Shown here one piece after another: positions 1 through 54,780 of a DNA stretch of 54,780 nucleotides; within the stretch, counting starts at the first letter, position 1, and each line of letters opens with the position of its first letter. This DNA comes from a virus. Where the stretch lies: IMG/VR virus record IMGVR_UViG_3300017830_000022, positions 1 through 54,780 of that record. One strand, written 5' to 3'. Below the pieces are notes generated by a model, which made no database searches, was not told the origin of the DNA, and was given only the letters and a program-made list of their open reading frames with translations. The position numbers and the translations under genes were made by a program.

Positions 1-99
1 GATTCAATTCATGTATTTGGGGGTTATGGCCTAGCGACAGGCGAACTCATCGAAATGGCAACATTTAGCCTAGGAAAACATCATGGCATCTACAGAAGC
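1..99. repeat. Exact 99-bp terminal overlap (1-99 = 54682-54780); circular-assembly signature or short terminal redundancy
   Basis: Compared base by base: first 99 nt identical to last 99 nt. Unique length 54,681 bp. Confidence 0.95.
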
Positions 100-18301: not shown

Positions 18302-19721
18302 AGCCTTTCCCCATCAGCAAAAAGACATCGACGAAAACGCTTTCCGTGAACGATGGGGCCTACTATGGGAAATGGGCACCGGCAAGACCCGAACGATCCT
18401 CGGTCACTTCGAGAAGCTTGTGAACGCGGGCAAGGTCACGCGAATCATTGTCGTCGCCCCGACGTCCGTACATCTGGGCTGGGGACGCGACGAGGCGCGC
18501 AAACATCTTGACGACGATCTTTTCCGGCGTCTTGTCGCGCTTTCATGGGTCTCTTCAAAGACCAAAACGAAGGCATTCCAGCGCAAGGCCGACACATTCA
18601 TGCATTCAAAGAATCCGGGACTAATGACATTGGGTTATGACGCCTTGATGAATAAGAATTGCTGGAAGTATGTGAAGACGATCATGAAGGAGCATAAGAC
18701 GCTCTTCGTGCTCGATGAGATGCACTACGTCAAAACACCCAGTGCGGCACGATCTACGCGGGTACACGCGACAGCGAAGTACGCCGCTTACGTCCGCGGA
18801 CTAAGTGGAACGCCGCAACCGAATAGCCCGTTTGATTTGTACATGGTGCTGAAAATTTTAAATCCAGAGATTCTCGCTGCGAATCAAGTACGAACGTCGG
18901 AAGCATTTCGGGCGTACTTTGGTGTGTTTCGTACACGGAATATCAATAATCATACATTCGAGGAGGTGACGGAGTATCGCAATTTAAGGCAACTCAGCTC
19001 GATGCTCAAAACGTGCACGCATCGCTTGTTGAAAGAACACGTTCTCGACCTCCCGCCCAAAATCTACACGCGACGCTACTTCACCATGCCACCCGAATGG
19101 AATGCTGCGTATAACAGCATCAAAGATTTACACGAACATATCTTCGAAGACGGTGAGCTTCTGACGACACCGCTTGCCATTCAAAGAATCACTCGACTGC
19201 AACAAGTTACGAGCGGCTACATCCCCACGGATGAATGTTCGTGGCCGCGACCCATCACGGGAGACAAAAATCCACGGCTCGATTTGCTAGAAGACATCCT
19301 TGCGGATACGACCGATAACGTCATTGTCTGGGCAAAGTACAAGAACGATCGCATTCGTATCTTCTCTCGGTTGGAGAAACTAGGTATCTCTTATGCAATC
19401 GTGCAAGGCGGCATGACAGATGAACAACGACGCAGCCAGGTTGCACGATTTCGTGAGGGCCGAGCTCGTGTTTTTATTGGGTCTGAGGCAGCAGCCGGAG
19501 CAGGAATCGATGGGTTTCAAGAACGTTGCGCAACGGTTGTCTATTACAACACAACCTACAACGGCGGCAATCGCCAACAATCGGAAGACCGCGCCCATCG
19601 AATTGGCCAAAAAAGAGCCGTCACTTATATTGACCTGATAGCATTGAATACTATAGATTCAGCGGTAGTGCAGAATCTCGAAGACAAGCGACGCCTGGCA
19701 AAGGAAGTGATTGACTCATGA
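18291..19721 (+). CDS. SNF2/Rad54-family helicase
   Basis: 476 aa. Motifs VLDEMHYVK (DExH), SGTPQPNS, QQSEDRAHRIGQKRAV. Confidence 0.85.
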   Translation: MKTKAFPHQQKDIDENAFRERWGLLWEMGTGKTRTILGHFEKLVNAGKVTRIIVVAPTSVHLGWGRDEARKHLDDDLFRRLVALSWVSSKTKTKAFQRKADTFMHSKNPGLMTLGYDALMNKNCWKYVKTIMKEHKTLFVLDEMHYVKTPSAARSTRVHATAKYAAYVRGLSGTPQPNSPFDLYMVLKILNPEILAANQVRTSEAFRAYFGVFRTRNINNHTFEEVTEYRNLRQLSSMLKTCTHRLLKEHVLDLPPKIYTRRYFTMPPEWNAAYNSIKDLHEHIFEDGELLTTPLAIQRITRLQQVTSGYIPTDECSWPRPITGDKNPRLDLLEDILADTTDNVIVWAKYKNDRIRIFSRLEKLGISYAIVQGGMTDEQRRSQVARFREGRARVFIGSEAAAGAGIDGFQERCATVVYYNTTYNGGNRQQSEDRAHRIGQKRAVTYIDLIALNTIDSAVVQNLEDKRRLAKEVIDS

Positions 19722-20272
19722 ATGCGGATATAAAAGAAATACTAGAGCAGCACGTGGCGTGGCTACGTGACCCGAAATCAGGGAGACAAGCAAACCTTCG
19801 CTACGCAAATCTCCACGGCGCAAACCTCCGCGACGCAGACCTCCACAAAGCGGATCTCCACAGAGTAGACCTCCGCGACGCAAACCTCCGCGACGCAAAC
19901 CTCTGCGACGCAAACCTCTGCGACGCAAACCTCTACGGGGCAAACCTCTGCGACGCAAACCTCCGCGACGCAAACCTTATCGGTGCAGACCTCCGCGACG
20001 CAAACCTCTGCGACGCAAACCTTATCGACGCAAACCTCCGCGACGCAAACCTTATCGGCGCAAACCTCCGCGACGCAAACCTCTACGGCGCAAATCTCCA
20101 CGGCGCAAACCTCCGCAGTGCAAACCTCCTGAGAGCCTCGTTGTGTCGCGCTACAATTGACGGAGCTAAATTAGCCTTCGAGGATATCGGAGGGCCTGGA
20201 CATATCCTTTGCGCCCTTACTGATCAGGAGTGGGAGCAAATTAAAGCTCAACGCGAGAAAGAAACCCCATGA
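19718..20272 (+). CDS. Pentapeptide-repeat protein 1
   Basis: 184 aa, ATGA-coupled to the SNF2 gene. ~25 consecutive A(N/D)Lxx pentapeptides followed by a ~45-aa non-repeat tail. Confidence 0.9.
   Translation: MNADIKEILEQHVAWLRDPKSGRQANLRYANLHGANLRDADLHKADLHRVDLRDANLRDANLCDANLCDANLYGANLCDANLRDANLIGADLRDANLCDANLIDANLRDANLIGANLRDANLYGANLHGANLRSANLLRASLCRATIDGAKLAFEDIGGPGHILCALTDQEWEQIKAQREKETP
19790..20135 (+). repeat. 15-nt periodic coding repeat array (GCAAACCTCCGCGAC-like)
   Basis: Visible tandem 15-nt units encoding ANLRD-type pentapeptides. They generate spurious antisense ORFs. Confidence 0.9.
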
Positions 20273-20802
20273 CCCAAGACCCCTATCATCAATTCCGTGT
20301 CCACGACACAAGTAAAATGAAAGAGCTGTCCGAATTATGCGACAGGCTCGAACGCGCTCGGCAAGTTGTCGAAGATTACGAGCAACAACTCGAAGACGCG
20401 ATGGACGTTGTCAAGGCGTTAGAGAGCCGGGAGATCCCCGATTTGATGCGCGAGCTCGACATGACCGAGGTCACCTTCGGCAATGGTCGCAAAGTGGCGG
20501 TGTCTGTCAAATATAAAGGCGGCATCGCCAAGGAAAATCGCGCCGCTGCGTTTGTCGTCCTTCGCGAGATGGATGAGGCCGGCATGATTAAAGGAGAAGT
20601 CAGAGCTAAGTTTGGTGCTGGAGATGAAAAGGCACAGAAGTTATATAAACAGCTCCAGGCTCGTGGCATAGATGTCGCGTATGACGAAAATGTCCACCAC
20701 AGCACCATCAGCTCCTGGGCAAACAAGCGGATGAAAGCCGGCGAAGTCGTACCGCCCGAGCTTGGTCTTTTCCCCCATACAACGGTGAAAATTACGCCAT
20801 GA
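20269..20802 (+). CDS. Hypothetical protein flanked by the two pentapeptide genes
   Basis: 177 aa, ATGA-coupled on both sides. N-terminal coiled-coil. No family recognised. Confidence 0.7.
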
Positions 20803-21278
20803 GTGCGGATATAGAAAAAACATTAAAGCAACACGTGGCGTGGTTACGTGACCCAAGTCTAGGGAGACAAGCAAACCTTCGCTACGCAAACCTCCGCAAC
20901 GCAAACCTCCACGGCGCAAACCTCCGCGACGCAGACCTCCACAAAGCGGATCTCTGCGGTGCAAACCTCCACGGCGCAAACCTCCGCGACGCAGACCTCC
21001 ACAAAGCGGATCTCCACAGAGTAGACCTCCGCAACGCAAACCTCCGCAACGCAAACCTCCGCGACGCAAACCTCCACGATGCAGACCTCCGCAACGCAAA
21101 CCTCCACGATGCAGACCTCCGCAACGCAAACCTCCACAGAGTAGACCTCCGCGACGCAAACCTCTACGGGGCAAACCTCTGCGACGCAAACCTCCGCGGG
21201 GCAAACCTTATCGGTGCAGACCTCCGCGACGCAAACCTCATCAACGCAGACCCCCATGATGTGTCGCGCTACAGTTGA
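20799..21278 (+). CDS. Pentapeptide-repeat protein 2 (C-terminally truncated relative to paralog 1)
   Basis: 159 aa with ~26 A(N/D)Lxx units. The 5' ~100 nt are highly similar to 19718... It stops inside a region homologous, out of frame, to the paralog 1 cap. Confidence 0.85.
20871..21255 (+). repeat. 15-nt periodic coding repeat array
   Basis: Same unit family as 19790..20135. Confidence 0.9.
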
Positions 21279-30358: not shown

Positions 30359-30387
30359 TTGCCGTTCGCGGCGTCCTGATATATAGT
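30359..30387 (+). promoter_or_regulatory. Candidate sigma70-type promoter for the RHH gene
   Basis: TTGCCG (30359-30364), 17 bp, TATAGT (30382-30387). ATG at 30398, so the predicted leader is only ~3-4 nt. Confidence 0.45.
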
Positions 30388-30397
30388 ATTGAACACT

Positions 30398-30583
30398 ATG
30401 CCCAGGACTCCGTCCCACAATCCGCGCACAAGCGTGAGTTTTTCGATCCCCGTCTCTGTTCGCAGCGAACTTTGTCGCCTCGCGGATGAGGACGGGGAAC
30501 CCTACTCCAAACTGATCCGAGACGCCTTAATGGCTTATTTCAAGAAGCGTGGAGCGGCAGTCAAACCATCCGATTGGCGCTAG
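30398..30583 (+). CDS. Ribbon-helix-helix (CopG/Arc-like) DNA-binding protein
   Basis: 61 aa. TSVSFSIPVSVRSELCRLADEDGEPYSKLIRDALMAYF fits a strand plus two helices. 4-nt stop/stop overlap with the convergent gene. Confidence 0.55.
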   Translation: MPRTPSHNPRTSVSFSIPVSVRSELCRLADEDGEPYSKLIRDALMAYFKKRGAAVKPSDWR

Positions 30584-31158: not shown

Positions 31159-31668
31159 TTAGCCGTACGGGCGAAAATTAGGTTGGTGGGCGTATTCATC
31201 GGACTCGTTGGGGCGCTGGAACTCGAAATCGAAGTCGTGTTCGCTTTTGTTTGATTTGATATTGTCGAATGCGATCTCTTCGACTTGCCGCACGCGCTCG
31301 CGTGTGCATTGGATGAACTCTCCGATCGACGCCAACGTCATGCCGGACGGGTTGGCTTCGATCAAGTCAAGCAAACAGCTCTTTTCCGCGGGCACTTCCC
31401 ACGGCTCAAGCGGCCCCCACGGGAAACGAATCGTGCCGTTCGTCGTGACGGTGAGATAGTTGTTCCAATAGCAGCTCACGTACGGGCAAGGACGGCAGCC
31501 ACCTCGGCATTCGCTGCGCTTTTCTGGGCGGCCTTCAACCTTTTCCGGATAGAGAAATCTCTGGACCACCTGCTCCTGGGCAGGTGCACGGCGGACACAT
31601 AAAGCTAATTTTGGGCTGCGGCGGATAGTAGACATGCGAGACTTTCTTGCGACAGCGGGTCCATGCAC
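31159..31668 (-). CDS. Sigma-70 region-4-type HTH protein with N-terminal Cys cluster
   Basis: 169 aa (alternative start 31635). CRGGCRPCPYVSC is followed by MTLASIGEFIQCTRERVRQVEEIAFDNIK, which resembles sigma region 4.2. Confidence 0.55.
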   Translation of the reverse strand: MHGPAVARKSRMSTIRRSPKLALCVRRAPAQEQVVQRFLYPEKVEGRPEKRSECRGGCRPCPYVSCYWNNYLTVTTNGTIRFPWGPLEPWEVPAEKSCLLDLIEANPSGMTLASIGEFIQCTRERVRQVEEIAFDNIKSNKSEHDFDFEFQRPNESDEYAHQPNFRPYG

Positions 31669-32093
31669 GCAACGATAGCTGCCACATTTTCCAATCCATT
31701 GGGCCGATTACCGTCTGCTGTGAAAACGGCAGGGCCCGACCGTGACTCTGCCCAGGCGATGGCATGGTCCGTTAGCTGAAGAGCGTAAAGATAATCTTCG
31801 AACACCGACATGACTCCGCCCACTTCGCATGTGTACAGCTGCGCGCGTCGATATCGGAACAGGGAGAAGCGGAACGGAAACGAAGCCTTTTTTACAGCAT
31901 CTGCGATACCCGGGGCGGCTGTGGAAGATGACTCAACCCAACCGACTCTCGTGTGATTGAACTCTAAAGAGTTCACTGCACTTTCGTAATAAGCCCGCTT
32001 GGACAAAAACCAATCTTTGTGGAGAAGACCTTCGGGATGCTCCATTGCTTTTATCCCACGCGAGAATAGCCGGCCGTCTAAGATCTGAATCAT
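31605..32093 (-). CDS. Hypothetical protein
   Basis: 162 aa. Its 3' end overlaps the next gene; no family recognised. Confidence 0.45.
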   Translation of the reverse strand: MIQILDGRLFSRGIKAMEHPEGLLHKDWFLSKRAYYESAVNSLEFNHTRVGWVESSSTAAPGIADAVKKASFPFRFSLFRYRRAQLYTCEVGGVMSVFEDYLYALQLTDHAIAWAESRSGPAVFTADGNRPNGLENVAAIVACMDPLSQESLACLLSAAAQN

Positions 32094-32344
32094 TTGACCA
32101 GCCTCCGATACTTTCTTCGGTCCGGAAGGAAGTAACCTACACTGAGGTCAAGGGCATCCGCCGTATAAAACAAGATGCCCAGAGATGTGGCAACTTCGTT
32201 CCGCTCGCGCTGTGCGATGATTTTGGGGTCGGATTCAAGCAGTTCCGCGAGCTCGCGGCGAGAGTAGCCGCGCATTTCTCGACCCATTTTCAGGCGACTC
32301 GCGATGTAGGGACGGCATTGGTATGGGATGGGGATAGCGGCCAT
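32090..32344 (-). CDS. XRE-type HTH protein (Aca-like position)
   Basis: 84 aa. YSRRELAELLESDPKIIAQRERNE is an HTH. Third gene behind a promoter-like gap. Confidence 0.6.
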   Translation of the reverse strand: MAAIPIPYQCRPYIASRLKMGREMRGYSRRELAELLESDPKIIAQRERNEVATSLGILFYTADALDLSVGYFLPDRRKYRRLVK

Positions 32345-33066: not shown

Positions 33067-33100
33067 CGCCCGGCCCTCTGCATGGGGGCCGGGCGTTTTT
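33067..33100 (+). terminator. Hairpin plus T5, intrinsic-terminator geometry on the + strand
   Basis: CGCCCGGCCC (33067-33076) pairs with GGGCCGGGCG (33086-33095), 9-nt loop, TTTTT 33096-33100. Lies directly after the stop of the minus-strand gene 33099..33392. Confidence 0.5.
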
Positions 33101-35246: not shown

Positions 35247-35864
35247 CTACTCGATATCAAAGTACGTGAAGGTCACACACGCTTCGGTGGCGTAGAGATT
35301 GGTAAAACTCATTGTCCACAAACCGTACGCCGTGCCGCCGTAGAACATTTCGAATGAAGGGATATTGTCGAGCGTATATGTTCGAAAAGGAACAACGTCG
35401 TGTGTCTCTCGCATCGAAATGAAATACTCTTCGTCTCGACCAAACATAAAGTACGGGGCCGCATCTCCTGGGCGCATGTGCGTCCATTTGACATCGACGC
35501 GAATCGACTTCACCTGGGCGTTTTGCGTTTCGACGGGCCACCCGAAGCTGGATTGCGGATTATCGGGGTCGACTTCGTAATCTAGGGTTTTCTCGTCCGA
35601 GCAGTACGTTTCCGTGAATTCGGTAGGCTCGGGCAAGTCGTCCTCAGAAATAGATTCGGACGCGTCGGACTCGTGGACGGACGGGCCCGACTGGGTAGTG
35701 TCGGTGGTGCCCGTAGTGTCCGTGGTGTCGCCGAGTTCGTGTTCGCTCAGCGACTGCAAATCGGGCTTGCCCTCGGTGTAGCAGCCCGAGGGAAACATAG
35801 CGAATTGGATGAGACAGACCACGGTGAGCGATCGGCAAAATATTTTGTGGTTTCGGTCGTTCAT
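35247..35864 (-). CDS. Exported (possibly lipo-)protein with C-terminal beta-sandwich-like domain
   Basis: 205 aa. Hydrophobic N-terminus ending FPSGC, Thr/Asp-rich linker. C-terminal VDVKWTHMRPGD...GLWTMSF is reminiscent of a convertase P-domain (weak). Confidence 0.45.
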   Translation of the reverse strand: MNDRNHKIFCRSLTVVCLIQFAMFPSGCYTEGKPDLQSLSEHELGDTTDTTGTTDTTQSGPSVHESDASESISEDDLPEPTEFTETYCSDEKTLDYEVDPDNPQSSFGWPVETQNAQVKSIRVDVKWTHMRPGDAAPYFMFGRDEEYFISMRETHDVVPFRTYTLDNIPSFEMFYGGTAYGLWTMSFTNLYATEACVTFTYFDIE

Positions 35865-35921
35865 GATTCATCCGGTCCTGGGCACCTCTTTGCAGGAAAA
35901 TGCCAATTGTAGCTGCCGCAT

Positions 35922-36317
35922 TCAAAATGGTCTCGTGTATGGCCTTCGGTGCGTCGTCTGTGTACGCCTGCATGGCTTATTTCCAGATCCGCGGGCGGGA
36001 AGATCGACGGGTGGAATAGTGGTGGGTCGGTAAACGCGACGGTCGTTGCGATCTCGGACGAGCTCCCCTTGGGCGATCAGTACATCGAGCGCGAACTTGC
36101 GCGCACGCATCGTGCCGAGGCAATGAGCGTATCCAGGACCGGCCCAGGTGGCCGTGCCTCGGTCGGCGACTTCGCCTCGGATGGCTTTGGCCTGCTCACG
36201 TACGAGACCCGTGAGGTAGGCGGAGGCTTTGACCTCGGCGACCGTGTAGGTGTCCATGTCTGCGTCGGTGACGAGTTCGGCAGGCGGGGCGGGGGTGGCG
36301 TAGTTCGTTGCGACCAT
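35922..36317 (-). CDS. Hypothetical protein, leaderless start predicted
   Basis: ATG 36317 (MVATNYATPAPP...) chosen because module copy A places a -10 box exactly 6 nt upstream. 131 aa. Confidence 0.5.
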   Translation of the reverse strand: MVATNYATPAPPAELVTDADMDTYTVAEVKASAYLTGLVREQAKAIRGEVADRGTATWAGPGYAHCLGTMRARKFALDVLIAQGELVRDRNDRRVYRPTTIPPVDLPARGSGNKPCRRTQTTHRRPYTRPF

Positions 36318-36374
36318 GGATTTAATATAGCCGTATGATGCGGCCATGGCAAGTGAGTGGAGATATTTTTTTTT
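36318..36374 (-). promoter_or_regulatory. Promoter module copy A (stem degenerated)
   Basis: Minus strand: A9 tract (36374-36366), TTGCCA (36352-36347), 17 bp, TATATT (36329-36324), 6 nt, ATG 36317. Confidence 0.55.
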
Positions 36375-36399
36375 GCGAATAAGGGGCGGATGGCGCCCA

Positions 36400-36753
36400 T
36401 TAGTCGATACTGTCTCGATCAATCTCGTAACATTCCGCAGCGCGGAATGCGTCGAGGGCTCGCTGCGAAACGATGCGGTACGTGGTGTGGGCGCGCCCAA
36501 ATACATCAGCATCCGCGTACCGTACGATATCGCCCATCAGAGAATCGACGCCGCGATCTCCTGGCGCCTCGTCGGCGTCCCAGTCATAGTTGTCGGCATC
36601 CACGATTTCCAGGTTGCCGAGGGCCACCTCGGCAACCTGGACCTCGCCGGACTGATCAGCGTACGCATCCGCGCTTTTCACCTCGGGCGTCCAGCACTGC
36701 CCGAGGTGGAGGGCGAATCGAGTGTGAGCACCGTGGTAGAGCGTCGTGGTCAT
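36400..36753 (-). CDS. Small strongly acidic protein
   Basis: 117 aa with ~23 Asp/Glu (counted by eye). Leaderless start predicted from module copy B. Confidence 0.6.
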   Translation of the reverse strand: MTTTLYHGAHTRFALHLGQCWTPEVKSADAYADQSGEVQVAEVALGNLEIVDADNYDWDADEAPGDRGVDSLMGDIVRYADADVFGRAHTTYRIVSQRALDAFRAAECYEIDRDSID

Positions 36754-36811
36754 AAGTAGAGGATAGCCGTGTCATACGGGCGGCGCAAGTATGACACGGC
36801 TATTTTTTTTT
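36754..36811 (-). promoter_or_regulatory. Promoter/hairpin module copy B
   Basis: Minus strand: A9 (36811-36803). 13-bp stem TAGCCGTGTCATA/TATGACACGGCTA (36764-36776 with 36790-36802). TTGCGC (36788-36783) in the loop, 17 bp, TATCCT (36765-36760), 6 nt, ATG 36753. On the + strand it reads as hairpin plus T9. Confidence 0.6.
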
Positions 36812-36823
36812 GCAGAGGTGCGG

Positions 36824-37093
36824 CTATGCCGCTTTTTGCTTTTTCCAGAAGGTGTGCACGGCCTGGGCGATGACGGGCTCGTTCCCGCCCGCGTAGATGA
36901 GCTCGCTCATTCCGCTGCACCAATTCACGGCTGATTTGGTGCAGATCAGCTCCGTGGGCACGCCTCGGACGCGGATGTCGGCCTGGAGCGAAACCGTCTT
37001 GCCGTCATCCCATTCGCTCCACACAGCAGCGGAGAGGACTTCGACCTCATCGGAGGTGATCGGGGTGATCGGGGAAATTTTGGAATTTGTCAT
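36824..37093 (-). CDS. Hypothetical protein
   Basis: 89 aa. Preceded by a 52-nt leader holding a partial module copy and a mini-ORF. Confidence 0.5.
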   Translation of the reverse strand: MTNSKISPITPITSDEVEVLSAAVWSEWDDGKTVSLQADIRVRGVPTELICTKSAVNWCSGMSELIYAGGNEPVIAQAVHTFWKKQKAA

Positions 37094-37154
37094 GATTGGC
37101 CCTTTGGGCGGGGTTTATGGGGGGTTTAGTGTTTGTTTCGGTCATGATTAGAGG

Positions 37155-37376
37155 TTAGCCGCGCGCATGATGCGGCAGGTCTATCGTGCGCTCCGAGAGC
37201 TGCCCCTCAGGAGCGTCCAGCCAATAGATGGTGAGCGGGCCCCAGTACTCACCACAGCTACGCATGATGTCCTCTAACGCGGACATCACTTCTGCTCCAG
37301 CGGGGATATCAACTTCGAAAGGGACATTGCCCATGGCAATGTCCTGGGATGTGGTTGTCATTACGGATGTGGTCAT
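37155..37376 (-). CDS. Hypothetical protein, leaderless start predicted
   Basis: 73 aa. ATG 37376 lies 6 nt after the -10 box of module copy C. Confidence 0.55.
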   Translation of the reverse strand: MTTSVMTTTSQDIAMGNVPFEVDIPAGAEVMSALEDIMRSCGEYWGPLTIYWLDAPEGQLSERTIDLPHHARG

Positions 37377-37434
37377 GATTAGAGGATAGCCGCATCATAC
37401 GGGCGGCGCAAGGGCGATGCGGTTGTTTTTTTTT
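37377..37434 (-). promoter_or_regulatory. Promoter/hairpin module copy C
   Basis: Minus strand: A9 (37434-37426). Stem AGCCGCATC/GATGCGGTT (37388-37396 with 37416-37424, one G-T pair). TTGCGC (37411-37406), 17 bp, TATCCT (37388-37383), 6 nt, ATG 37376. Confidence 0.6.
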
Positions 37435-37656
37435 GGAGCGTTATGAGATTCGGCGTTGACCCGCAGCGGTCCGCCTCCGCTGCGGGCGAGTCTCGGACTC
37501 TCTGACTCTCGCCAAGGTGATGTTATATGAGGGCGATGCCAGGACGCGTACTTCGGGCGACCTTGCCGTGGCGGGACGGCGGCCCGTTCGGAGCTCTCCT
37601 CCGAGTCTAGTTCACCTTGCCGTGCGCGGAATTGAACCGCGCACGGACTTGTGGCT
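37435..37656 (-). ncRNA. Candidate structured non-coding RNA region with T-arm-like hairpin
   Basis: 222-nt GC-rich gap. Hairpins on the minus strand: CCGTGCGCGG-TTCAATT-CCGCGCACGG (37620-37646), TCGGAG-GAGAG-CTCCGA (37588-37604), CCCGCAGCGG-AGGCGGA-CCGCTGCGGG (37460-37486). Possible long-range pair CAAGGTGA (37612-37619) with TCACCTTG (37513-37520). Confidence 0.3.
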
Positions 37657-38133
37657 CTACCAGTCGACCTTTCCGTGGCCGTAGGAACCGAGCGCCGCGT
37701 TCGGTTCGGCTCGGGCGCTGGACCCCCAGCGCAAAAGTTGGCGGCAGCCGATAATTTTTCCACTGTCGTCGCGGACAAAATCCGCGGGAGTGACGAGATC
37801 ATCGCGATGAGGGCACTGCTGCGCGACGATCGTTGCTACGATATATATGTTCCACTGCCCCCTCGGGGGCAGTCCCTCGGGGTCACCAAGGCGGGCCTCG
37901 GCGATGTTGATGTGGATTTCAGAGAGCCCCTCGGGGCCCTCGAGATAAAAGGGGTCCACACTCTCAGAGTGTGTCTCTGTTTTGATGCGCGCGACATCCC
38001 CTGATGGAGGGATGTTCACGGTCTCCCCGTTGGGGAGATGTAGAGATACGGTGTGCGGGGTCAGGTTTATTAACATCTTTTTCGGGTCTCCGGACGCCTC
38101 TCGGCGTTTCGGCCCACCCCCGTGGGCCATCAT
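37657..38133 (-). CDS. Hypothetical protein
   Basis: 158 aa (alternative start ATG 38076, MLINLTPHTV...). 3 nt after the upstream stop. Confidence 0.5.
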   Translation of the reverse strand: MMAHGGGPKRREASGDPKKMLINLTPHTVSLHLPNGETVNIPPSGDVARIKTETHSESVDPFYLEGPEGLSEIHINIAEARLGDPEGLPPRGQWNIYIVATIVAQQCPHRDDLVTPADFVRDDSGKIIGCRQLLRWGSSARAEPNAALGSYGHGKVDW

Positions 38134-38136
38134 CAG

Positions 38137-38409
38137 TTATGCGGGGCTGTATCGGTCGGCGACACGCTCCTCGTCGAGGACGATCTGGTCGAGCTGGCAT
38201 CCGCCATGCTCATCCGCGGCGTAGATGTCGATGATGACTGCATCCAACCGGCGCGCCTTGTTGCGCGCCTTGTTGCGGACGCGAGCTCGGACCTCGTCGA
38301 GCTGACCTCCGCCCGGTAAACCGGCCCAGGTCTCGGAGTCCGTGCCACTCAACGTCACGAAGAGAGTGGTGCCGGTGTTGGAGAGTTCGAATGTGTTTGT
38401 TTCGCTCAT
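38137..38409 (-). CDS. Hypothetical protein, leaderless start predicted
   Basis: ATG 38409 (MSETNTFELS...) lies 6 nt after the -10 box of module copy D. The ORF track start 38415 would sit inside the promoter. Confidence 0.55.
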   Translation of the reverse strand: MSETNTFELSNTGTTLFVTLSGTDSETWAGLPGGGQLDEVRARVRNKARNKARRLDAVIIDIYAADEHGGCQLDQIVLDEERVADRYSPA

Positions 38410-38464
38410 GAACATACTATAGCCGCATGATACGGGCAGCGCAAGTGGGATGCGGCTATTTTTT
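38410..38464 (-). promoter_or_regulatory. Promoter/hairpin module copy D
   Basis: Minus strand: A6 (38464-38459). Stem ATAGCCGCAT/ATGCGGCTAT (38419-38428 with 38450-38459). TTGCGC (38444-38439), 17 bp, TATAGT (38421-38416), 6 nt, ATG 38409. Confidence 0.6.
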
Positions 38465-38622
38465 ACAGGGGTGCGGCGAATGCGCTACGGAATGGGCGCA
38501 GCACTGATGATCTCAAGGAGTCTGTCGCGATACAGACAGCTTATTTTGCGGCGCAAACCTGCCTCAGCCACATCCGCAGCCGCAGACGTAGCCTCAACCA
38601 CAGCCACATGCCAAGCTGTGGA

Positions 38623-39174
38623 TCATCTTCCGTACTCCAGATTGAGCAGTGCTATTTGGGCGAATTGGTATAGTTCTGGGTCATCCGTGGGCGTGCGGGC
38701 TTGCACGATGTCGATCATCGGGCCGACACGTTCGTCGAGCTGCTCCTCGGTCGCTCCCATAACGTCGTACATAAATTGCAACGTATGTGCAATGCATTCG
38801 ATCTCCACGGCAAAGGGGCCGTCGTTGGCAAGATGCATGTCGCCGCGTAGATGCTGCTCGTAATGGCACCCCTCATGCACCAAAACAAGCGCCCGGTCGC
38901 ACACCTCCTGGGCATGGAAATCCTCTTGCAAATAGACTGTATCCGCGAACGTGTTATAGCAGGAACCGTCTGTCCAACACTCCGTACTTTTTCCCTTTCT
39001 GATCTTGATGCTCGGAATATTCTTCGTGTATTCCGCTTCCGCGGAGGTACACGTGTGCCCAGTGAATGAGGGGCGGTCGTAGGCGGCCAAGACCAAGGCG
39101 GTTGTGTCGGGACCAGCTTGCCCACACGAGGATAGGGCAAGAAGAAGGGGTAATAATTGTGATGAGGTTTTCAT
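38623..39174 (-). CDS. Lipoprotein with HExxH zinc-metalloprotease motif
   Basis: 183 aa. MKTSSQLLPLLLALSSC is a signal peptide plus lipobox LSSC. Six further Cys. LVHEGCHYEQH contains HExxH. Confidence 0.6.
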   Translation of the reverse strand: MKTSSQLLPLLLALSSCGQAGPDTTALVLAAYDRPSFTGHTCTSAEAEYTKNIPSIKIRKGKSTECWTDGSCYNTFADTVYLQEDFHAQEVCDRALVLVHEGCHYEQHLRGDMHLANDGPFAVEIECIAHTLQFMYDVMGATEEQLDERVGPMIDIVQARTPTDDPELYQFAQIALLNLEYGR

Positions 39175-40000: not shown

Positions 40001-41623
40001 TCATTTCTCCGAGAGGCCTAATATTTTTTCAATCTTGCGACGGTCCTCTGCCGTGCATTTAAAAACGGTCTGTTCTTTTTTCGAGGATCGGTAAAGCCAC
40101 TCGCCCTTCAAGCAATCGACTAAAGCCTCGCCGTCCGCTGTTCCACGGCAAACGATCTGATGTGTGTCGCTATGCACGACAAGCCATTCGGGGAATGGTC
40201 CCGCGTTCCTTTTTACGAACAGCGTTCGAATGCGCATCGCGTCGTAGAATGAGTGCCATTCGAAAGACGGATAAGGAGCGAGGGATTTGATCCACTTCGC
40301 GTCCTTTTCTTTAAGACGGAAATTAGTGCCGTCATGAAGACGGAAAAGATTGCTGCGATTGAGGCGGTGGGCCGGAGCGTGGTGAGTGTCGATCTGGTCG
40401 TACGCCTTGCTGGGCTGGATGAGGAGGTCGTGGGCGATCGCCCACGACCCGTCGTCAGTGACGTGGATAATGGAGGCAAGGTCGGGGCGGCGCGTGGGGT
40501 GTGAGACGATGAGGCGAACGTCGGTGCCCAGCTCGAAGATGTAGCGGGGGTCGGAGGTCGCCTCACACTCTTTGCGGGCTCGATCGAAACTCTCAGAATC
40601 GACGCCGGCGGGGTTTGCGTGAAGGACGTCCACGGGATTTTGGTCCGCCACAAACTCCTGGCTAAGATGTGGCGAAGTTGTGGATTGTGTGGATTTCGGG
40701 GGATTTTGGTCCGCCACAAACTCCTGGCTAAGATGTGGCGAAGTTGTGGATTGTGTGGATTTCGGGGGATTTAGGGGGGCTACGATGGGTTCGGGGTAGG
40801 GCGGAAAGAGGGCGAGAATGGCGTCGCCGTCCGCGCCCGTGAGGGTGAAGTCGGGATAAGGCGTGTCGGGGCGACGGACCTTATAGACGGGGTCCTTGCC
40901 GAAATCCTTTTGGGCGCATAATGCGGATCGGATATCCGATCCGGTCGCGGGGAGAGGCGTGAGGTGACGAGTCGCCCAGGAGCCGTCAGACTGGACGATG
41001 AGGCGGGCGACATCGTCGGGGTGCGTGGCGTGGAGATATTCTTTGGGCCAGTTGGGGTCGGTGGGGTCGATGAATCTGAGGTCGGTGGGGTCGGTGGGGT
41101 CGATGAATCTGAGGTCGAGGGATTCGACGAATTTGTCGGCAGCGGCAATGGCGGTGTCGGTGTCGGTGGGAGTGCGGACGGGTCCTGGATCCGGGGGACT
41201 AGAGGGTTGTGTCTCGTGGATCTTGGGTGGTGGGTTCGTGGCGGGGAGTGGGCTATCGGGAAGGAGAGAGTCGAGAGTGTCGAGTGTGGTTTGGAGACGG
41301 TCGAGCGCGGCGCGCTCTTCGGCCGTCTCGGTCTCAAGGGAATCGCGGAGAAGGCTGAGGGCGGGGAGACAGCGCTGGATGGTGAGGAGATCGCAGGAGG
41401 AGAGCTGCCTATGACCGGAGGCCTCGTCATCGAGCTCGAGCTCGATCCGTGGGGGGTCAGTGCGCGCCCAGTGCAGGGCGCGGGCCTGTGCCTCTATATA
41501 GAGGTGGCACCGCGAGTACGCCTGGGACCAGGCTTCTTCGAGGGCTTTGATGGCGATCTGCCAAGAAGACGGGGCCGCGGAGGGGCATTGGGGGTCGGAC
41601 GGAGGTGGGCTATCACTGGGCAT
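40001..41623 (-). CDS. Large early protein with in-frame tandem duplications, function unknown
   Basis: 540 aa, first gene of the leftward block. Helical N-terminus, Pro/Thr-rich linker, two DGSWA-containing domains. No family recognised. Confidence 0.65.
   Translation of the reverse strand: MPSDSPPPSDPQCPSAAPSSWQIAIKALEEAWSQAYSRCHLYIEAQARALHWARTDPPRIELELDDEASGHRQLSSCDLLTIQRCLPALSLLRDSLETETAEERAALDRLQTTLDTLDSLLPDSPLPATNPPPKIHETQPSSPPDPGPVRTPTDTDTAIAAADKFVESLDLRFIDPTDPTDLRFIDPTDPNWPKEYLHATHPDDVARLIVQSDGSWATRHLTPLPATGSDIRSALCAQKDFGKDPVYKVRRPDTPYPDFTLTGADGDAILALFPPYPEPIVAPLNPPKSTQSTTSPHLSQEFVADQNPPKSTQSTTSPHLSQEFVADQNPVDVLHANPAGVDSESFDRARKECEATSDPRYIFELGTDVRLIVSHPTRRPDLASIIHVTDDGSWAIAHDLLIQPSKAYDQIDTHHAPAHRLNRSNLFRLHDGTNFRLKEKDAKWIKSLAPYPSFEWHSFYDAMRIRTLFVKRNAGPFPEWLVVHSDTHQIVCRGTADGEALVDCLKGEWLYRSSKKEQTVFKCTAEDRRKIEKILGLSEK
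40634..40772. repeat. 66-bp perfect tandem duplication (about 2.1 copies), in frame
   Basis: Units 40634-40699 and 40700-40765 are identical by eye. They encode NPPKSTQSTTSPHLSQEFVADQ twice. Confidence 0.9.
41054..41119. repeat. 33-bp tandem duplication (2 copies, 31/33 identical), in frame
   Basis: 41054-41086 versus 41087-41119. Encodes DLRFIDPTDPT twice. Confidence 0.85.
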
Positions 41624-41632
41624 CGTGAGGGC

Positions 41633-41661
41633 AGTATCACACGGGCATCGGCAGATAGCAA
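41633..41661 (-). promoter_or_regulatory. Candidate leftward early promoter (P_L)
   Basis: Minus strand: TTGCTA (41661-41656), 17 bp, GATACT (41638-41633), 9 nt, ATG 41623 (near-leaderless). Confidence 0.45.
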
Positions 41662-41756: not shown

Positions 41757-41785
41757 TTGACTGGGCCATGAGGCGGAGGTAATCT
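41757..41785 (+). promoter_or_regulatory. Candidate rightward promoter (P_R)
   Basis: TTGACT (41757-41762), 17 bp, TAATCT (41780-41785). Back-to-back with P_L, ~95 bp between the -35 boxes. Confidence 0.45.
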
Positions 41786-42103: not shown

Positions 42104-42190
42104 CCAGAACCTAGCCATTTACTCCACAAAATCCTGGATGGCGTAAGTATGCGGAATCATTGAGATCCGCACAAACATGACGCGAAGCCA

Positions 42191-42241
42191 CGAAAAAAGG
42201 GCGCAGGAAAGTTTTGTAAATTTTCTGGCGTCCTTTTTTCG
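42191..42241. terminator. Long imperfect inverted repeat flanked by A6 and T6 (bidirectional-terminator geometry)
   Basis: CGAAAAAAGGGCGCAGGAAA ... TTTTCTGGCGTCCTTTTTTCG. The outer 10 bp are perfect, the inner part has a bulge. Confidence 0.4.
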
Positions 42242-42330
42242 TGAAAAACCGTGGGGGATTTTCGGCCCTCCTTCTTTTCTACTTGTTTCCTAATAAAAAA
42301 AAGAGAGAAAAAGAGAGGTGGTTCGACGGG

Positions 42331-43142: not shown

Positions 43143-43268
43143 TGCTATTCAACATTATTAGATGCTATCTTAAATAGTCGTGATTTTGGTTGCTTAGCCT
43201 GCACGTGATACGCTTTGCGCGTGACGGGGATTTACCTACATTTCGGGGTTGGGTTTCTCCTTGGCCGT

Positions 43269-43313
43269 GCTCGTGCCGGTTCCGGTGGGCCTGGGACCGG
43301 CACGAGCTTTTTT
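43269..43313 (+). terminator. Strong intrinsic terminator 12 nt upstream of the first late gene
   Basis: 12-bp stem GCTCGTGCCGGT (43269-43280) with ACCGGCACGAGC (43296-43307), 15-nt loop, T6 at 43308-43313. Confidence 0.7.
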
Positions 43314-43324
43314 GGGGGCAGCCT

Positions 43325-44191
43325 ATGAGCGACGTTCTTGCGGCACTTAGCTCGAGTGGGCTCGATATCTGGGTGCGCCGTGGTGATAACCTGGATGCGG
43401 TCTGGACGATTGTGGATAGCGGCGGGCAAGCAGTTGCATTGCCTGATTTTGCTGTCACAATTGAAAAGTCAGGCGTGCCCGGAGCCACTCTCGAAGTGCC
43501 GCCCACGCTTACGCCGAGCGCGGCAACGGTTGGCGACACAGTAGGCCAGGTTCGTTTCCAGCTTGGTGGCGGCGTTGCGGGCGTGAGCGATACTGAACCT
43601 CGCGTTCAACGATACCAGTTAGTGCTGGCAACTCCGTCGTTTCGTCGTGTCGTGCTGCAAGGTGAGTACATCGTCAACACGAACGGCCAGACGGGGCTTT
43701 TCAGCAATGCGGCCTCTGGGGCCCCCGCGGCCCCAACACAAGGCGCTCCGGGTCCTACGGGACCTCGGGGCCCTGCTGGTCCACCCGGCCCCGCCGGTCC
43801 AGTGGGGCCCACACAAGTACCGGCGGGGACGAATTTGGCGCTTGGAGGCCTTGTGGCGTTCAATACAAGCGGCCACGCGGCATTAGCAAATGCTGCTCTT
43901 GCTAGCAATTTATACCGAGCTGTTGGTGTGAGCACGACGGAAGTGCTCGGCGGTGCGCAAGCGCAGGTCCAGTTCACTCATGCGTTGGTGCCCGTTCTCA
44001 TGGATGCGGCCCCTGCTGCCACGGAGAATGGTAAATACATTTGGCTATCAGATATTGATGGCACGGCTTCTCTCGCCCCGCCTGTCTCAGCAGGCAATGC
44101 TCGTTTTCGAGTCGGCGTGCTCTCAGGAGCGAACGGGGCGACACTTACTCCTGAGGTACTCTTCCAACCTCAGTTCGTGGCGGCAGCGTAA
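43325..44191 (+). CDS. Collagen-like repeat fibre protein
   Basis: 288 aa from ATG 43325. Gly-X-Y run GAPGPTGPRGPAGPPGPAGPVGP between beta-rich N- and C-terminal parts. Confidence 0.65.
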   Translation: MSDVLAALSSSGLDIWVRRGDNLDAVWTIVDSGGQAVALPDFAVTIEKSGVPGATLEVPPTLTPSAATVGDTVGQVRFQLGGGVAGVSDTEPRVQRYQLVLATPSFRRVVLQGEYIVNTNGQTGLFSNAASGAPAAPTQGAPGPTGPRGPAGPPGPAGPVGPTQVPAGTNLALGGLVAFNTSGHAALANAALASNLYRAVGVSTTEVLGGAQAQVQFTHALVPVLMDAAPAATENGKYIWLSDIDGTASLAPPVSAGNARFRVGVLSGANGATLTPEVLFQPQFVAAA

Positions 44192-54325: not shown

Positions 54326-54715
54326 ATGGCTTCCACTGACGCTGCCAAAACTGTCACTGTCCCGATCTCGCCTGATGCAGGCACGTCGATTTTTCGCTAT
54401 CGCTTCATGCAGTATACGTCGAACGGCGCACGAATATTTGGGGCATTGACGACTGGCGCACGCGCTAATTACATCACAACTGAAACAATCGTGACTGGGC
54501 AAACTCACGTGGCCGCATGGATCCCAAACGGTGCGACTGTGTTAGGTGAAGTTGGCGCACCGATTGCTTCAGCGGGGGTGCAAATCACCACGCTTGCCAA
54601 TGGTCGTGTAGCTACGGCTTCCGCAGGGCATGCAATTCTTGGCGTTTCGCTGGCAGCTGGTGCGGCCGGAGAGACGATTCCGATTCAATTCATGTATTTG
54701 GGGGTTATGGCCTAG
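54326..54715 (+). CDS. Small head decoration / capsid cement-like protein, paralog 1
   Basis: 129 aa. GAGGAAAG RBS. Paralog of 83..460, which follows 48 nt downstream once the circle is closed. Confidence 0.55.
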   Translation: MASTDAAKTVTVPISPDAGTSIFRYRFMQYTSNGARIFGALTTGARANYITTETIVTGQTHVAAWIPNGATVLGEVGAPIASAGVQITTLANGRVATASAGHAILGVSLAAGAAGETIPIQFMYLGVMA

Positions 54716-54780
54716 CGACAGGCGAACTCATCGAAATGGCAACATTTAGCCTAGGAAAACATCATGGCATCTACAGAAGC
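54682..54780. repeat. Second copy of the 99-bp terminal overlap
   Basis: Identical to 1-99. Confidence 0.95.

Follow-up and report, generated by a model that had tools for sequence, protein, structure and literature searches.

Promoter-early stem-loops (PeSLs) of T4-type phages are repeated intergenic motifs of ~50-60 nucleotides (nt) with demonstrated promoter and terminator activity and with recombination between copies (PMC2839356, PMC4122927). Here we describe four copies of a comparable module on the minus strand of a window of 54,780 nt, the whole of IMG/VR virus record IMGVR_UViG_3300017830_000022, where each copy places a sigma70-like promoter, and in three of them a hairpin around the -35 box, directly before the ATG of a small gene. 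The T4-type PeSL is the closest described system, and the modules would be a leaderless, hairpin-around-the--35 version of it in another phage lineage. PeSLs share with these modules, which we call A to D, the two sigma70-like boxes 17 bp apart (PMC2839356, PMC4122927), an AT-rich tract upstream of the -35 (A9, A9, A9 and A6 here) and a stem-loop between or overlapping the boxes, the stems of B, C and D bracketing the -35 and module A having a 7-bp hairpin in its spacer. PeSLs flank ORFans in hyperplastic regions that vary among close relatives, and two of the small genes here, those behind C and D, are likewise ORFans. Both kinds of element are thought to insulate transcription and to mediate shuffling. 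They differ in that a PeSL ends in a Shine-Dalgarno sequence followed at a distance by the start codon, while in the modules the ATG coincides with the predicted +1, and in that PeSLs belong to T4-type myoviruses, whereas the phage here is of siphovirus type. The T-run that would complete a terminator also lies on the antisense strand here, and the activity that has been shown for PeSLs is predicted from sequence for these modules.

Each ingredient of the design already has precedent. The PRM promoter of lambda cI is a leaderless promoter in a phage, and the morons of lambdoid prophages consist of a promoter, a gene and a terminator. The cassettes here resemble morons in being small accessory genes with their own promoter and hairpin boundaries, but a moron terminator follows its gene in the sense orientation and the one here is antisense, so the term "moron-like" used in a preliminary description of this DNA does not strictly apply; there are also no conserved flanking genes here that would define an insertion. 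Bidirectional or antisense-facing intrinsic terminators are built from an A-tract, a hairpin and a U-tract. The likeness lies in a GC-rich stem followed directly by T6 to T9 on the + strand with an A-run at the other side, and the differences are that the run is on one side only, that loops of 11-21 nt hold the -35 and that no convergent gene is present. Leaderless promoters (PL1, PR2 and PL2) have also been predicted in Cluster O mycobacteriophages (PMC4351075). Unlike the modules, the leaderless promoters of Cluster O and lambda are single, stand at operon heads, are not part of a hairpin-fused repeat and belong to other hosts. The middle promoters of T4 that depend on MotA, and the promoter-middle stem-loops (PmSLs), resemble the modules in that a stem-loop module holds a conserved box which takes the place of the -35 or lengthens it and which keeps a fixed distance to a TAnnnT -10 (PMC2988021, PMC4122927), but no MotA or AsiA homologue is encoded here and the box sequence is unrelated.

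The preliminary description had reported four gene starts preceded by one architecture, and every element that it named is present when the minus strand is read. The shared layout, ~60 nt long, consists of an A-tract, TTGC(GC or CA), 17 nt, TATNNT, 6 nt and ATG, and the four copies are as follows.

Module A, 36315-36374, minus strand: A9 at 36366-36374, -35 TTGCCA at 36347-36352, -10 TATATT at 36324-36329, ATG at 36315-36317; layout AAAAAAAAA-13 nt-TTGCCA-17-TATATT-AAATCC-ATG (36317).
Module B, 36751-36811, minus strand: A9 at 36803-36811, -35 TTGCGC at 36783-36788, -10 TATCCT at 36760-36765, ATG at 36751-36753; layout AAAAAAAAA-14-TTGCGC-17-TATCCT-CTACTT-ATG (36753).
Arms of module B, minus strand: left 36790-36802, right 36764-36776, the last two bases of the right arm being the start of the -10.
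Module C, 37374-37434, minus strand: A9 at 37426-37434, -35 at 37406-37411, -10 TATCCT at 37383-37388, ATG at 37374-37376; layout AAAAAAAAA-14-TTGCGC-17-TATCCT-CTAATC-ATG (37376).
Arms of module C, minus strand: left 37416-37424, right 37388-37396.
Module D, 38407-38464, minus strand: A6 at 38459-38464, -35 at 38439-38444, -10 TATAGT at 38416-38421, ATG at 38407-38409; layout AAAAAA-14-TTGCGC-17-TATAGT-ATGTTC-ATG (38409).
Arms of module D, 10 bp, minus strand: 38450-38459 and 38419-38428.

Between the A-tract (A9 in A, B and C, A6 in D) and the -35 downstream of it there are 13 nt in A and 14 nt in the other three modules. The tract of module C reads A10 in an independent Logan assembly (SRR10406138), the sole difference over 14.3 kb, and this could be either a homopolymer assembly error or real slippage. 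The pattern TTGCSM-N17-TATNNT-N6-ATG has 4 matches, against 0.00 expected from 100 shuffles, and the looser TTGNNN-17-TANNNT-6-ATG followed by an open reading frame (ORF) of at least 40 amino acids (aa) returns the same 4 sites only in the whole genome (0.1 expected). In the 12-kb block of minus-strand genes, the sites of the form TTGNNN-16..18-TANNNT on that strand are the four modules and one at 30420. Together the copies form one 70-nt repeat family with 69-83% identity, clustered within 2.1 kb, and on this similarity we regard them as paralogues and not as independent events. Invariance across the four copies is confined to the A-tract, CTTGC, CGGCTAT..T and ATG, the promoter determinants, and the 6-nt gap before the ATG varies in sequence while its length is constant. 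As had been claimed, no Shine-Dalgarno sequence lies within the 6-nt gaps or just upstream of them. Module A matches the sigma70 consensus at 10/12 positions and scores 65.6 bits against a covariance model of the module. This geometry, the missing Shine-Dalgarno sequences, the stems, the uneven conservation within the module and the recurrence in homologous loci described below are all seen directly.

The explanation that we prefer, with a probability of roughly 0.55, is that the modules are paralogous composite cassette boundaries, each starting its own transcription unit in an accessory-gene arm that is probably early. Each would contain a host sigma70-type promoter in which 17 bp separate a TTGCxx -35 from a (GGC)TATxxT -10 and an A-tract at about -58 to -50 has an UP-element-like position. 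With the -10 ending 6 nt before the ATG, transcription would start from the start codon's A, and the leaderless mRNA would be translated by 70S initiation without a Shine-Dalgarno sequence, which is plausible in the likely alphaproteobacterial host. The hairpins of B, C and D with their A/T-runs would be factor-independent terminators for RNA polymerase on the + strand, and because they would act on that polymerase, and in the sense direction be at most a weak attenuator or a stabiliser of 3′ ends, they would insulate neighbouring cassettes from one another. Repeats of ~60 nt would also offer homology for recombination by which small genes are duplicated, swapped or lost, and a half-copy of the module, E, would be the trace left by one of these events. 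That the modules act as promoters, where their transcripts start, that they terminate and that they recombine are all predictions.

We consider the leaderless-promoter reading well supported. The claim in the preliminary description that +1 falls on the A of each ATG drew support by inference and from comparison with loci that encode homologues of gene B, the gene behind module B. At 5 of 9 independent gene-B loci, a different TTGCNN-16/17-(T/C)A…T motif lies 6-9 nt before the start codon, as listed here for each homologue.

L170: TTGCTT-17-CATAAT-6-ATG before the gene-B homologue.
L188: TTGCGT-16-TACTAT-6-GTG before the gene-B homologue.
L172: TTGCAT-17-CATAGT-9-ATG before the gene-B homologue.
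L183 and L184: TTGCAA-17-TATAAT-9-ATG before the gene-B homologue.

The loci L181 and L186/L187 are leadered, with GGAG, and at L182 and L185, both counted among the nine, the assignment of a motif is ambiguous. These genomes have repeated modules of their own, with two copies in L170 and two in L172. The related metagenomic contigs L183 (2500-4450) and L184 (2070-4750) each hold 6-7 tandem cassettes, in which a ~75-nt module (a T-rich tract, TTGCAA-17-TA...(T/C), 7-10 nt and ATG) precedes an ORF of 66-113 aa; many of these ORFs begin MTN… or MNN…, and one is the gene-B homologue. Promoter-at-ATG cassettes would thus appear to be a recurrent design around the gene-B family, and the arrays of L183 and L184 suggest that the design is not peculiar to a single phage. 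The modules of L170, L183 and L184 were also inspected for hairpins like those of B, C and D, and only weak, non-conserved repeats of 5-6 bp were seen there.

Among the sequences searched, the module itself occurs in this genome alone. A search of other phage genomes with a covariance model had been proposed; the model built from the four copies matched only those copies and half-copy E and gave 0 matches in 12 related loci. The 16-nt core of the loop, CTTGCGCYGCCCGTAT, had single chance matches only, inside coding sequence, in the viral and genome collections, and a longer 20-nt pattern had 0 matches in metagenome contigs and 1 chance match in viral contigs. In 35500-39000 the best Rfam match had E = 0.27, with none on the modules, and ARAGORN found no tRNA.

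The four genes that directly follow the modules are listed below, and their start codons bear on the leaderless reading.

Gene A, 35922-36317, minus strand: 131 aa; its small family, with proteins of 80-96 aa, has G.GYHR…RDFAFRVLVAKGEL as a conserved motif.
Gene B, 36400-36753, minus strand: 117 aa, of a conserved phage ORF family with no assigned function (MTTTLYHGAHT…HLGQC…APGD…).
Gene C, 37155-37376, minus strand: 73 aa from the module ATG, an ORFan.
Gene D, 38137-38409, minus strand: 90 aa, an ORFan, for which the public gene call uses the module ATG.

Homologues of gene B have ~50% identity, and three of them share the N-terminus M-(T/S)-x-(T/S)-L-Y-H-G-A-H-T (MTTTLYHGAHT or MSISLYHGAHT), with no similarity upstream; because these N-termini coincide, the start codon and the coding strand of gene B are fixed. 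Gene A homologues align from residue 8 or 24 onward, which favours the ATG at 36317 over an in-frame ATG 30 nt upstream. Taken together, the module ATG looks settled as the start of gene B, is consistent with the data for genes A and D and is uncertain for gene C. Codon statistics could not separate sense from antisense ORFs in the same frame, and it was homology that decided the assignment of the genes to the minus strand. Genes D and C have no homologue among 5.8 billion proteins and genes B and A only a few distant ones. The earlier idea of self-contained cassettes also fits. Searches of Pfam, PHROGs and PDB profiles for a function of the cassette proteins were empty except for PHROGs of unknown function matched by a 158-aa ORF behind module D.

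Gene A has a 31-aa C-terminal extension relative to its homologues of 80-96 aa. This tail is rich in Arg, Pro and Thr and overlaps another ORF, and 5/8 small gene-A homologues (P0006-P0013) end in …AA; the tail may reflect a frame change at the 3′ end. Gene B is unusually rich in inverted repeats (36424-36715), including a 20-nt hairpin with 90% complementarity at 36603-36646 that encodes EVQVAEVALGNLEIV, and its opposite strand gives a weak, sub-threshold match to the radC RNA (E = 0.27).

The hairpins of B, C and D are made by an inverted repeat whose arms flank the -35 and whose right arm abuts or runs into the -10. The stem of B has 13-14 bp (-27.6 kcal/mol, z = -9.0 as minus-strand RNA, and -34.7 as + strand RNA; its fold energies span -24 to -35 kcal/mol), that of D has 10 perfect pairs and that of C has 7 bp with an A.C mismatch whose + strand counterpart pairs as G.U. 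Only B is far more stable than shuffled sequence (z = -9), C having z ~-2 and D z ~-1, and, taken by itself, the hairpin of each of the three copies gains 1.6-4.5 kcal/mol of stability as + strand RNA. The arms are complementary in all three, as had been described, but those quoted for C came from a reading of the + strand. Copy A has no stem around its -35 and only the 7-bp hairpin inside its spacer, which confirms that it lost the stem and kept both boxes and the A-tract; much of the core is lost as well. Because copy A keeps every promoter feature without conservation of stem or loop, the promoter and the hairpin look like separable parts of the module.

Covariation of the hairpin is suggestive. 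Two adjacent pairs are compensatory, U-A and G-C in B against C-G and A-U in C and D, so that the term "covarying hairpin" holds for two pairs among three paralogous copies, but significance is not reached: 36/500 shuffles attain the observed number of double changes, which come from 3-4 sequences. The loop is more conserved than the stem. B and C have the same 16-nt core, from which D departs at 1 position; this bears out the claim of a conserved loop core. Between B and C there are differences at 0/16 positions of the core and at 7/14 of the left arm (Fisher p ~0.002, by hand).

On the + strand, the stems of 8-14 bp in B, C and D are followed directly by T9, T9 and T6. They had been taken for intrinsic terminators, for which the structure is correct, but the loops of 11-21 nt exceed the classical size and there is no + strand gene to terminate. 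Read in the minus-strand sense, the A-run comes before the hairpin and only UAUCCUCU… comes after it, which in this direction would at best give a weak attenuator or a hairpin that stabilises the 3′ end of the upstream message. Within the minus-strand block, the strong terminators (modules B, C and D, 33067-33095 and 36820-36832) are all directed at the + strand. The strongest classical one, at 33067-33095, has a 12-bp stem with 11 GC pairs, then T5, and lies between two minus-strand ORFs. Genes on the + strand use classical sense terminators of a hairpin plus T-run, for example at 43269-43307 (a 17-bp stem and T6); this one lies inside an ORF predicted at 43190-44191, which makes the TTG start of that ORF doubtful. 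A 26-nt inverted repeat between A6 and T6 at 42189-42243, resembling a bidirectional terminator, stands at the start of the rightward genes.

Five other kinds of element were considered for these hairpins and rejected. A hairpin promoter of the N4 type is excluded by the lack of a virion RNA polymerase and by loops that far exceed 3 nt, and a single-strand promoter of the F-plasmid type by the position of the boxes, which the loop, and not the stem, contains here. For an RNase III site the stems are too short. Divergent transcription from a symmetric -10 would give RNA that does not hold both arms, and a small antisense RNA ending at the T-runs has no promoter-like site upstream on the + strand save a weak one at 37104-37132.

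Recombination between modules is hinted at by a single scar, half-copy E (37143-37187, minus strand), which consists of the right-hand half of a module, beginning mid-way in the loop or spacer, CCGCATCATGCG(+CGC)GGCTAaCCTCTAATC-ATG, and scores 13.7 bits. From -23 to +6, 22/23 positions match C (GCGGCTAaCCTCTAATCATGACC), and from +7 to +17 the sequence is identical to D (GAAACAAACAC); this mosaic fits recombination between modules, a process that in PeSLs goes with mini-circles and chimeric motifs. Copy E has a 3-nt insertion in the spacer and a -10 changed to TAACCT, has no -35, left arm or A-tract, and supplies the last codons and the stop of gene C. Its similarity to the modules ends within the loop or spacer, and the crossovers mapped between T4-type PeSLs, in the loop or between the -10 and the ATG, resemble this breakpoint (PMC2839356).

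Whether leaderless messages are a reasonable expectation depends on the host. The window is a complete, circularly assembled phage genome of ~54,681 bp with a perfect 99-nt terminal direct repeat (bases 1-99 = 54682-54780). Genes on the + strand run from 41.8 kb round the circle to 30.5 kb, and a block of small minus-strand genes, which contains the modules, runs from 41.6 to 30.5 kb. The phage encodes a lambda-like tape-measure protein, a tail tube, a Mu-type portal, a large terminase and an E-family capsid protein, together with a family-A DNA polymerase, a primase/helicase, a thymidylate synthase and a dNMP kinase. Distal tail genes of the type known from the Rhodobacter gene transfer agent, RcGTA, are present (DUF2460, Phage_BR0599, phiJL001_Gp84_N and Phage-tail_3); the phage is of siphovirus type, with these RcGTA-like tail genes, and is not T4-like. 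Its nearest cultured relatives are distant: the capsid protein has 37% identity to that of Roseobacter phage RDJL Phi1/2, the nearest capsid, the terminase 38% to those of Shewanella and Rhizobium phages and the polymerase 47% to those of Pseudomonas PaMx11-like phages. Single-protein scans with the 540-aa, 158-aa and terminase proteins found no close phage relatives in the collections searched, blastn of the module region against 50,697 phage records gave no match, and no lysogeny genes were found in the phage. Because the family alignments contained no prophage copy in 185,579 genomes, we infer the host, which is likely alphaproteobacterial given the RcGTA-type tail genes and a nearest capsid from a Roseobacter phage. 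Use of Shine-Dalgarno sequences is weak genome-wide in this phage, with motifs before some genes and none before many. In Alphaproteobacteria, leaderless mRNAs are common and efficiently translated (PMC4117421, PMC3616915). Caulobacter has 375 of them (9.6% of coding sequences), translated as well as leadered mRNAs, and Shine-Dalgarno sequences at only 24.6% of its start sites (PMC4117421), and S. meliloti has 171, all with an AUG start (PMC3616915).

Several observations weigh against composite cassette boundaries with their own promoters and antisense-facing terminators. The most serious concern the terminator: its orientation is left unexplained and makes little sense. The loops of 11-21 nt are atypically large compared with the classical 3-8 nt, a generic terminator scan reported none of the three hairpins, no + strand genes are called in the block and only one + strand promoter-like site, at the far end (30359-30387), points into it. 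In the relatives the hairpin or T-run is in the sense orientation, with a sense hairpin and T7 directly abutting the -35 in L179 and a T-rich tract directly upstream of the -35 in L183 and L184. Other points concern the promoter. Modules B, C and D match only 7-8/12 positions of the E. coli sigma70 consensus and would be weak promoters by that measure, and a generic promoter scan passed only module A. Conservation is as high in the 9 spacer bases that follow the -35 (CGCCCGTAT) as in that box, which a plain sigma70 promoter does not account for, and the exact spacing could partly be inherited through paralogy and not selected. Gene calls disagree in two cases: some gene callers choose the in-frame upstream ATG of gene A, and one public gene call for C starts at Met15 behind AGGA, a plausible internal start, giving 59 aa. 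As to the site at 30359-30387, it reads TTGCCG-17-TATAGT, with the -10 of module D, lies just after the thymidylate synthase gene and faces the 3′ end of the minus-strand block; a weak hairpin and T-run follow at 30423-30436, and the site could drive a short antisense RNA.

The conservation of the core beyond the -35 hexamer, with 0-1/16 changes where the arms differ at 4-7/14 positions, is what one would expect if B, C and D were phage-regulated, middle-class promoters, with CTTGCGCYGCCCGTAT as the predicted site of a phage activator or sigma-region-4-like protein, comparable to the MotA box of T4, module A as a plain host-sigma70 early version and the hairpin as secondary. This account is possible though doubtful. 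That the hairpin may be a regulatory switch, or an element recognised by phage sigma-4-like or HTH proteins, had been put forward in the preliminary description and is conjectural. Module A, the best sigma70 match, lacks the box, the phage encodes an HTH_3 protein (32090-32344) and has a weak Sigma70_r4 match (31159-31668), and PmSLs have been described in T4-type phages (PMC4122927). The Sigma70_r4 match is below the Pfam cutoff, however (22.3 vs 24.1 bits), the continued complementarity of the arms is left unexplained, and the shared core of three paralogues could come from recent gene conversion. A more ambitious proposal is in our view just as doubtful: the hairpin with its conserved 16-nt loop would be a functional element in itself, separable from the promoter as in copy A, and might be read as RNA or extruded DNA by a phage factor, the module would be a switchable promoter/terminator and a preferred crossover point, and the cassettes, with promoters fused to the ATG and no ribosome-binding site, would be the smallest units able to express themselves and would belong to a general, undescribed system of ORFan shuffling in non-T4 phages, at which the arrays of 6-7 cassettes in L183 and L184 hint. 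The inverted repeat might instead act as double-stranded DNA, as an operator on which a dimeric repressor bound to half-sites TAGCCG…CGGCTA around the -35 shuts the promoters off. B and D share the outer 6 bp of both arms (TAGCCG / CGGCTA), none of the four copies departs from the right half-site, and the site overlaps the -35 and -10 as operators do, with the HTH_3 protein as an encoded regulator. Yet the half-sites are ~33 bp apart and the left one of C differs (CAACCG), a protein reading half-sites does not need the compensatory changes of the inner stem, and the invariance of the right half-site is already due to the -10 region, so that we rate an operator as slightly less likely still.

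If the copies were instead functionless relics of recent local duplications, transcribed within one long leftward message from ~41.6 kb, their paralogy, their clustering within 2.1 kb and the absence of the module from all other sequences searched would follow, and a candidate leftward promoter does exist (TTGCTA-17-GATACT, 9 nt before the ATG at 41623). We find this unlikely. What is conserved coincides exactly with the promoter determinants, and adjacent bases differ by up to 50%. Spacing and -35 are gone from the decayed copy E, internal genes without Shine-Dalgarno sequences would translate poorly, and other gene-B phages have the same promoter-to-ATG geometry in unrelated sequences. Structure-specific recombination sites, like the attC sites of integrons, would account for stems that differ in sequence yet stay paired, for elements that separate small ORFan cassettes and for a copy E that breaks in the loop. 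That such sites mobilise the cassettes is nevertheless highly improbable, given that Pfam scans of ~55 ORFs found no integrase or other recombinase, that attC has R and L core boxes in its stem and a variable centre where the modules have a conserved loop and a variable stem, and that promoter features fully explain the conserved positions.

Around the modules lie two further genes and a structured spacer.

89-aa ORF, 36824-37093, minus strand: second gene behind module C, with a weak AAGGG 6 nt before its ATG.
158-aa ORF, 37657-38133, minus strand: second gene behind module D, with matches to phrog_21731 and phrog_30542, of unknown function.
Structured 220-nt spacer upstream of module C, 37436-37656, minus strand: 10-bp hairpins at 37620-37646 and 37460-37486, neither followed by a T-run.

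The small hairpin at 36820-36832 (GCGGCTATGCCGC, then T5GCT5 on the + strand) adjoins module B and contains the stop of the 89-aa ORF; it re-uses the module arm sequence GCGGCTAT / ATAGCCGC and may be the remnant of another module. The 158-aa ORF probably starts at the ATG at 38076, behind GGAG. Its end is overlapped by a tRNA-like fragment at 37615-37668 on the minus strand, with a D-arm-like CTGGTAGAGC, then a 10-bp hairpin with a T-loop-like loop GGTTCAATTCC and no anticodon arm. Neither ARAGORN nor Rfam called this fragment, and its 23-mer had no exact match in the 185,579 genomes.

Elsewhere in the genome, the candidate leftward promoter before the ATG at 41623 lies in the divergent control region (41624-41660) and is itself near-leaderless, and TTGACT-17-TAATCT at 41757-41785 in the same region lies 19 nt before the first rightward ATG, with no Shine-Dalgarno sequence. 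The first gene of the minus-strand block, of 540 aa, contains a perfect 66-nt tandem duplication and 33-nt tandem repeats (40634-40765 and 41053-41142). Periodic repeats of 15 nt occur at 19702-20272, where they encode a pentapeptide-repeat protein (Pfam E = 9e-39), and at 20798-21277; each of the two is followed by the same 37-nt sequence (20142 and 21260). The contig L170 likewise has a gene with a 15-nt periodic repeat.

If confirmed, the composite cassette boundaries would extend the PeSL idea, that of motifs which both insulate and shuffle genes, from T4-type phages to a siphovirus whose host is probably an alphaproteobacterium. They would also mean that such cassettes can dispense with a ribosome-binding site and that ~60 nt of control sequence suffices wherever a gene lands. 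The compactness of the module, with the -35 in the hairpin loop and the -10 abutting the stem, makes it a test object for the overlap of structure and promoter, for leaderless expression during infection and for antisense-facing terminators. For phage annotation, the practical use lies in start-codon corrections for several ORFs and in arrays of TTGCNN-17-TAnnnT-6..10-ATG as a search pattern.

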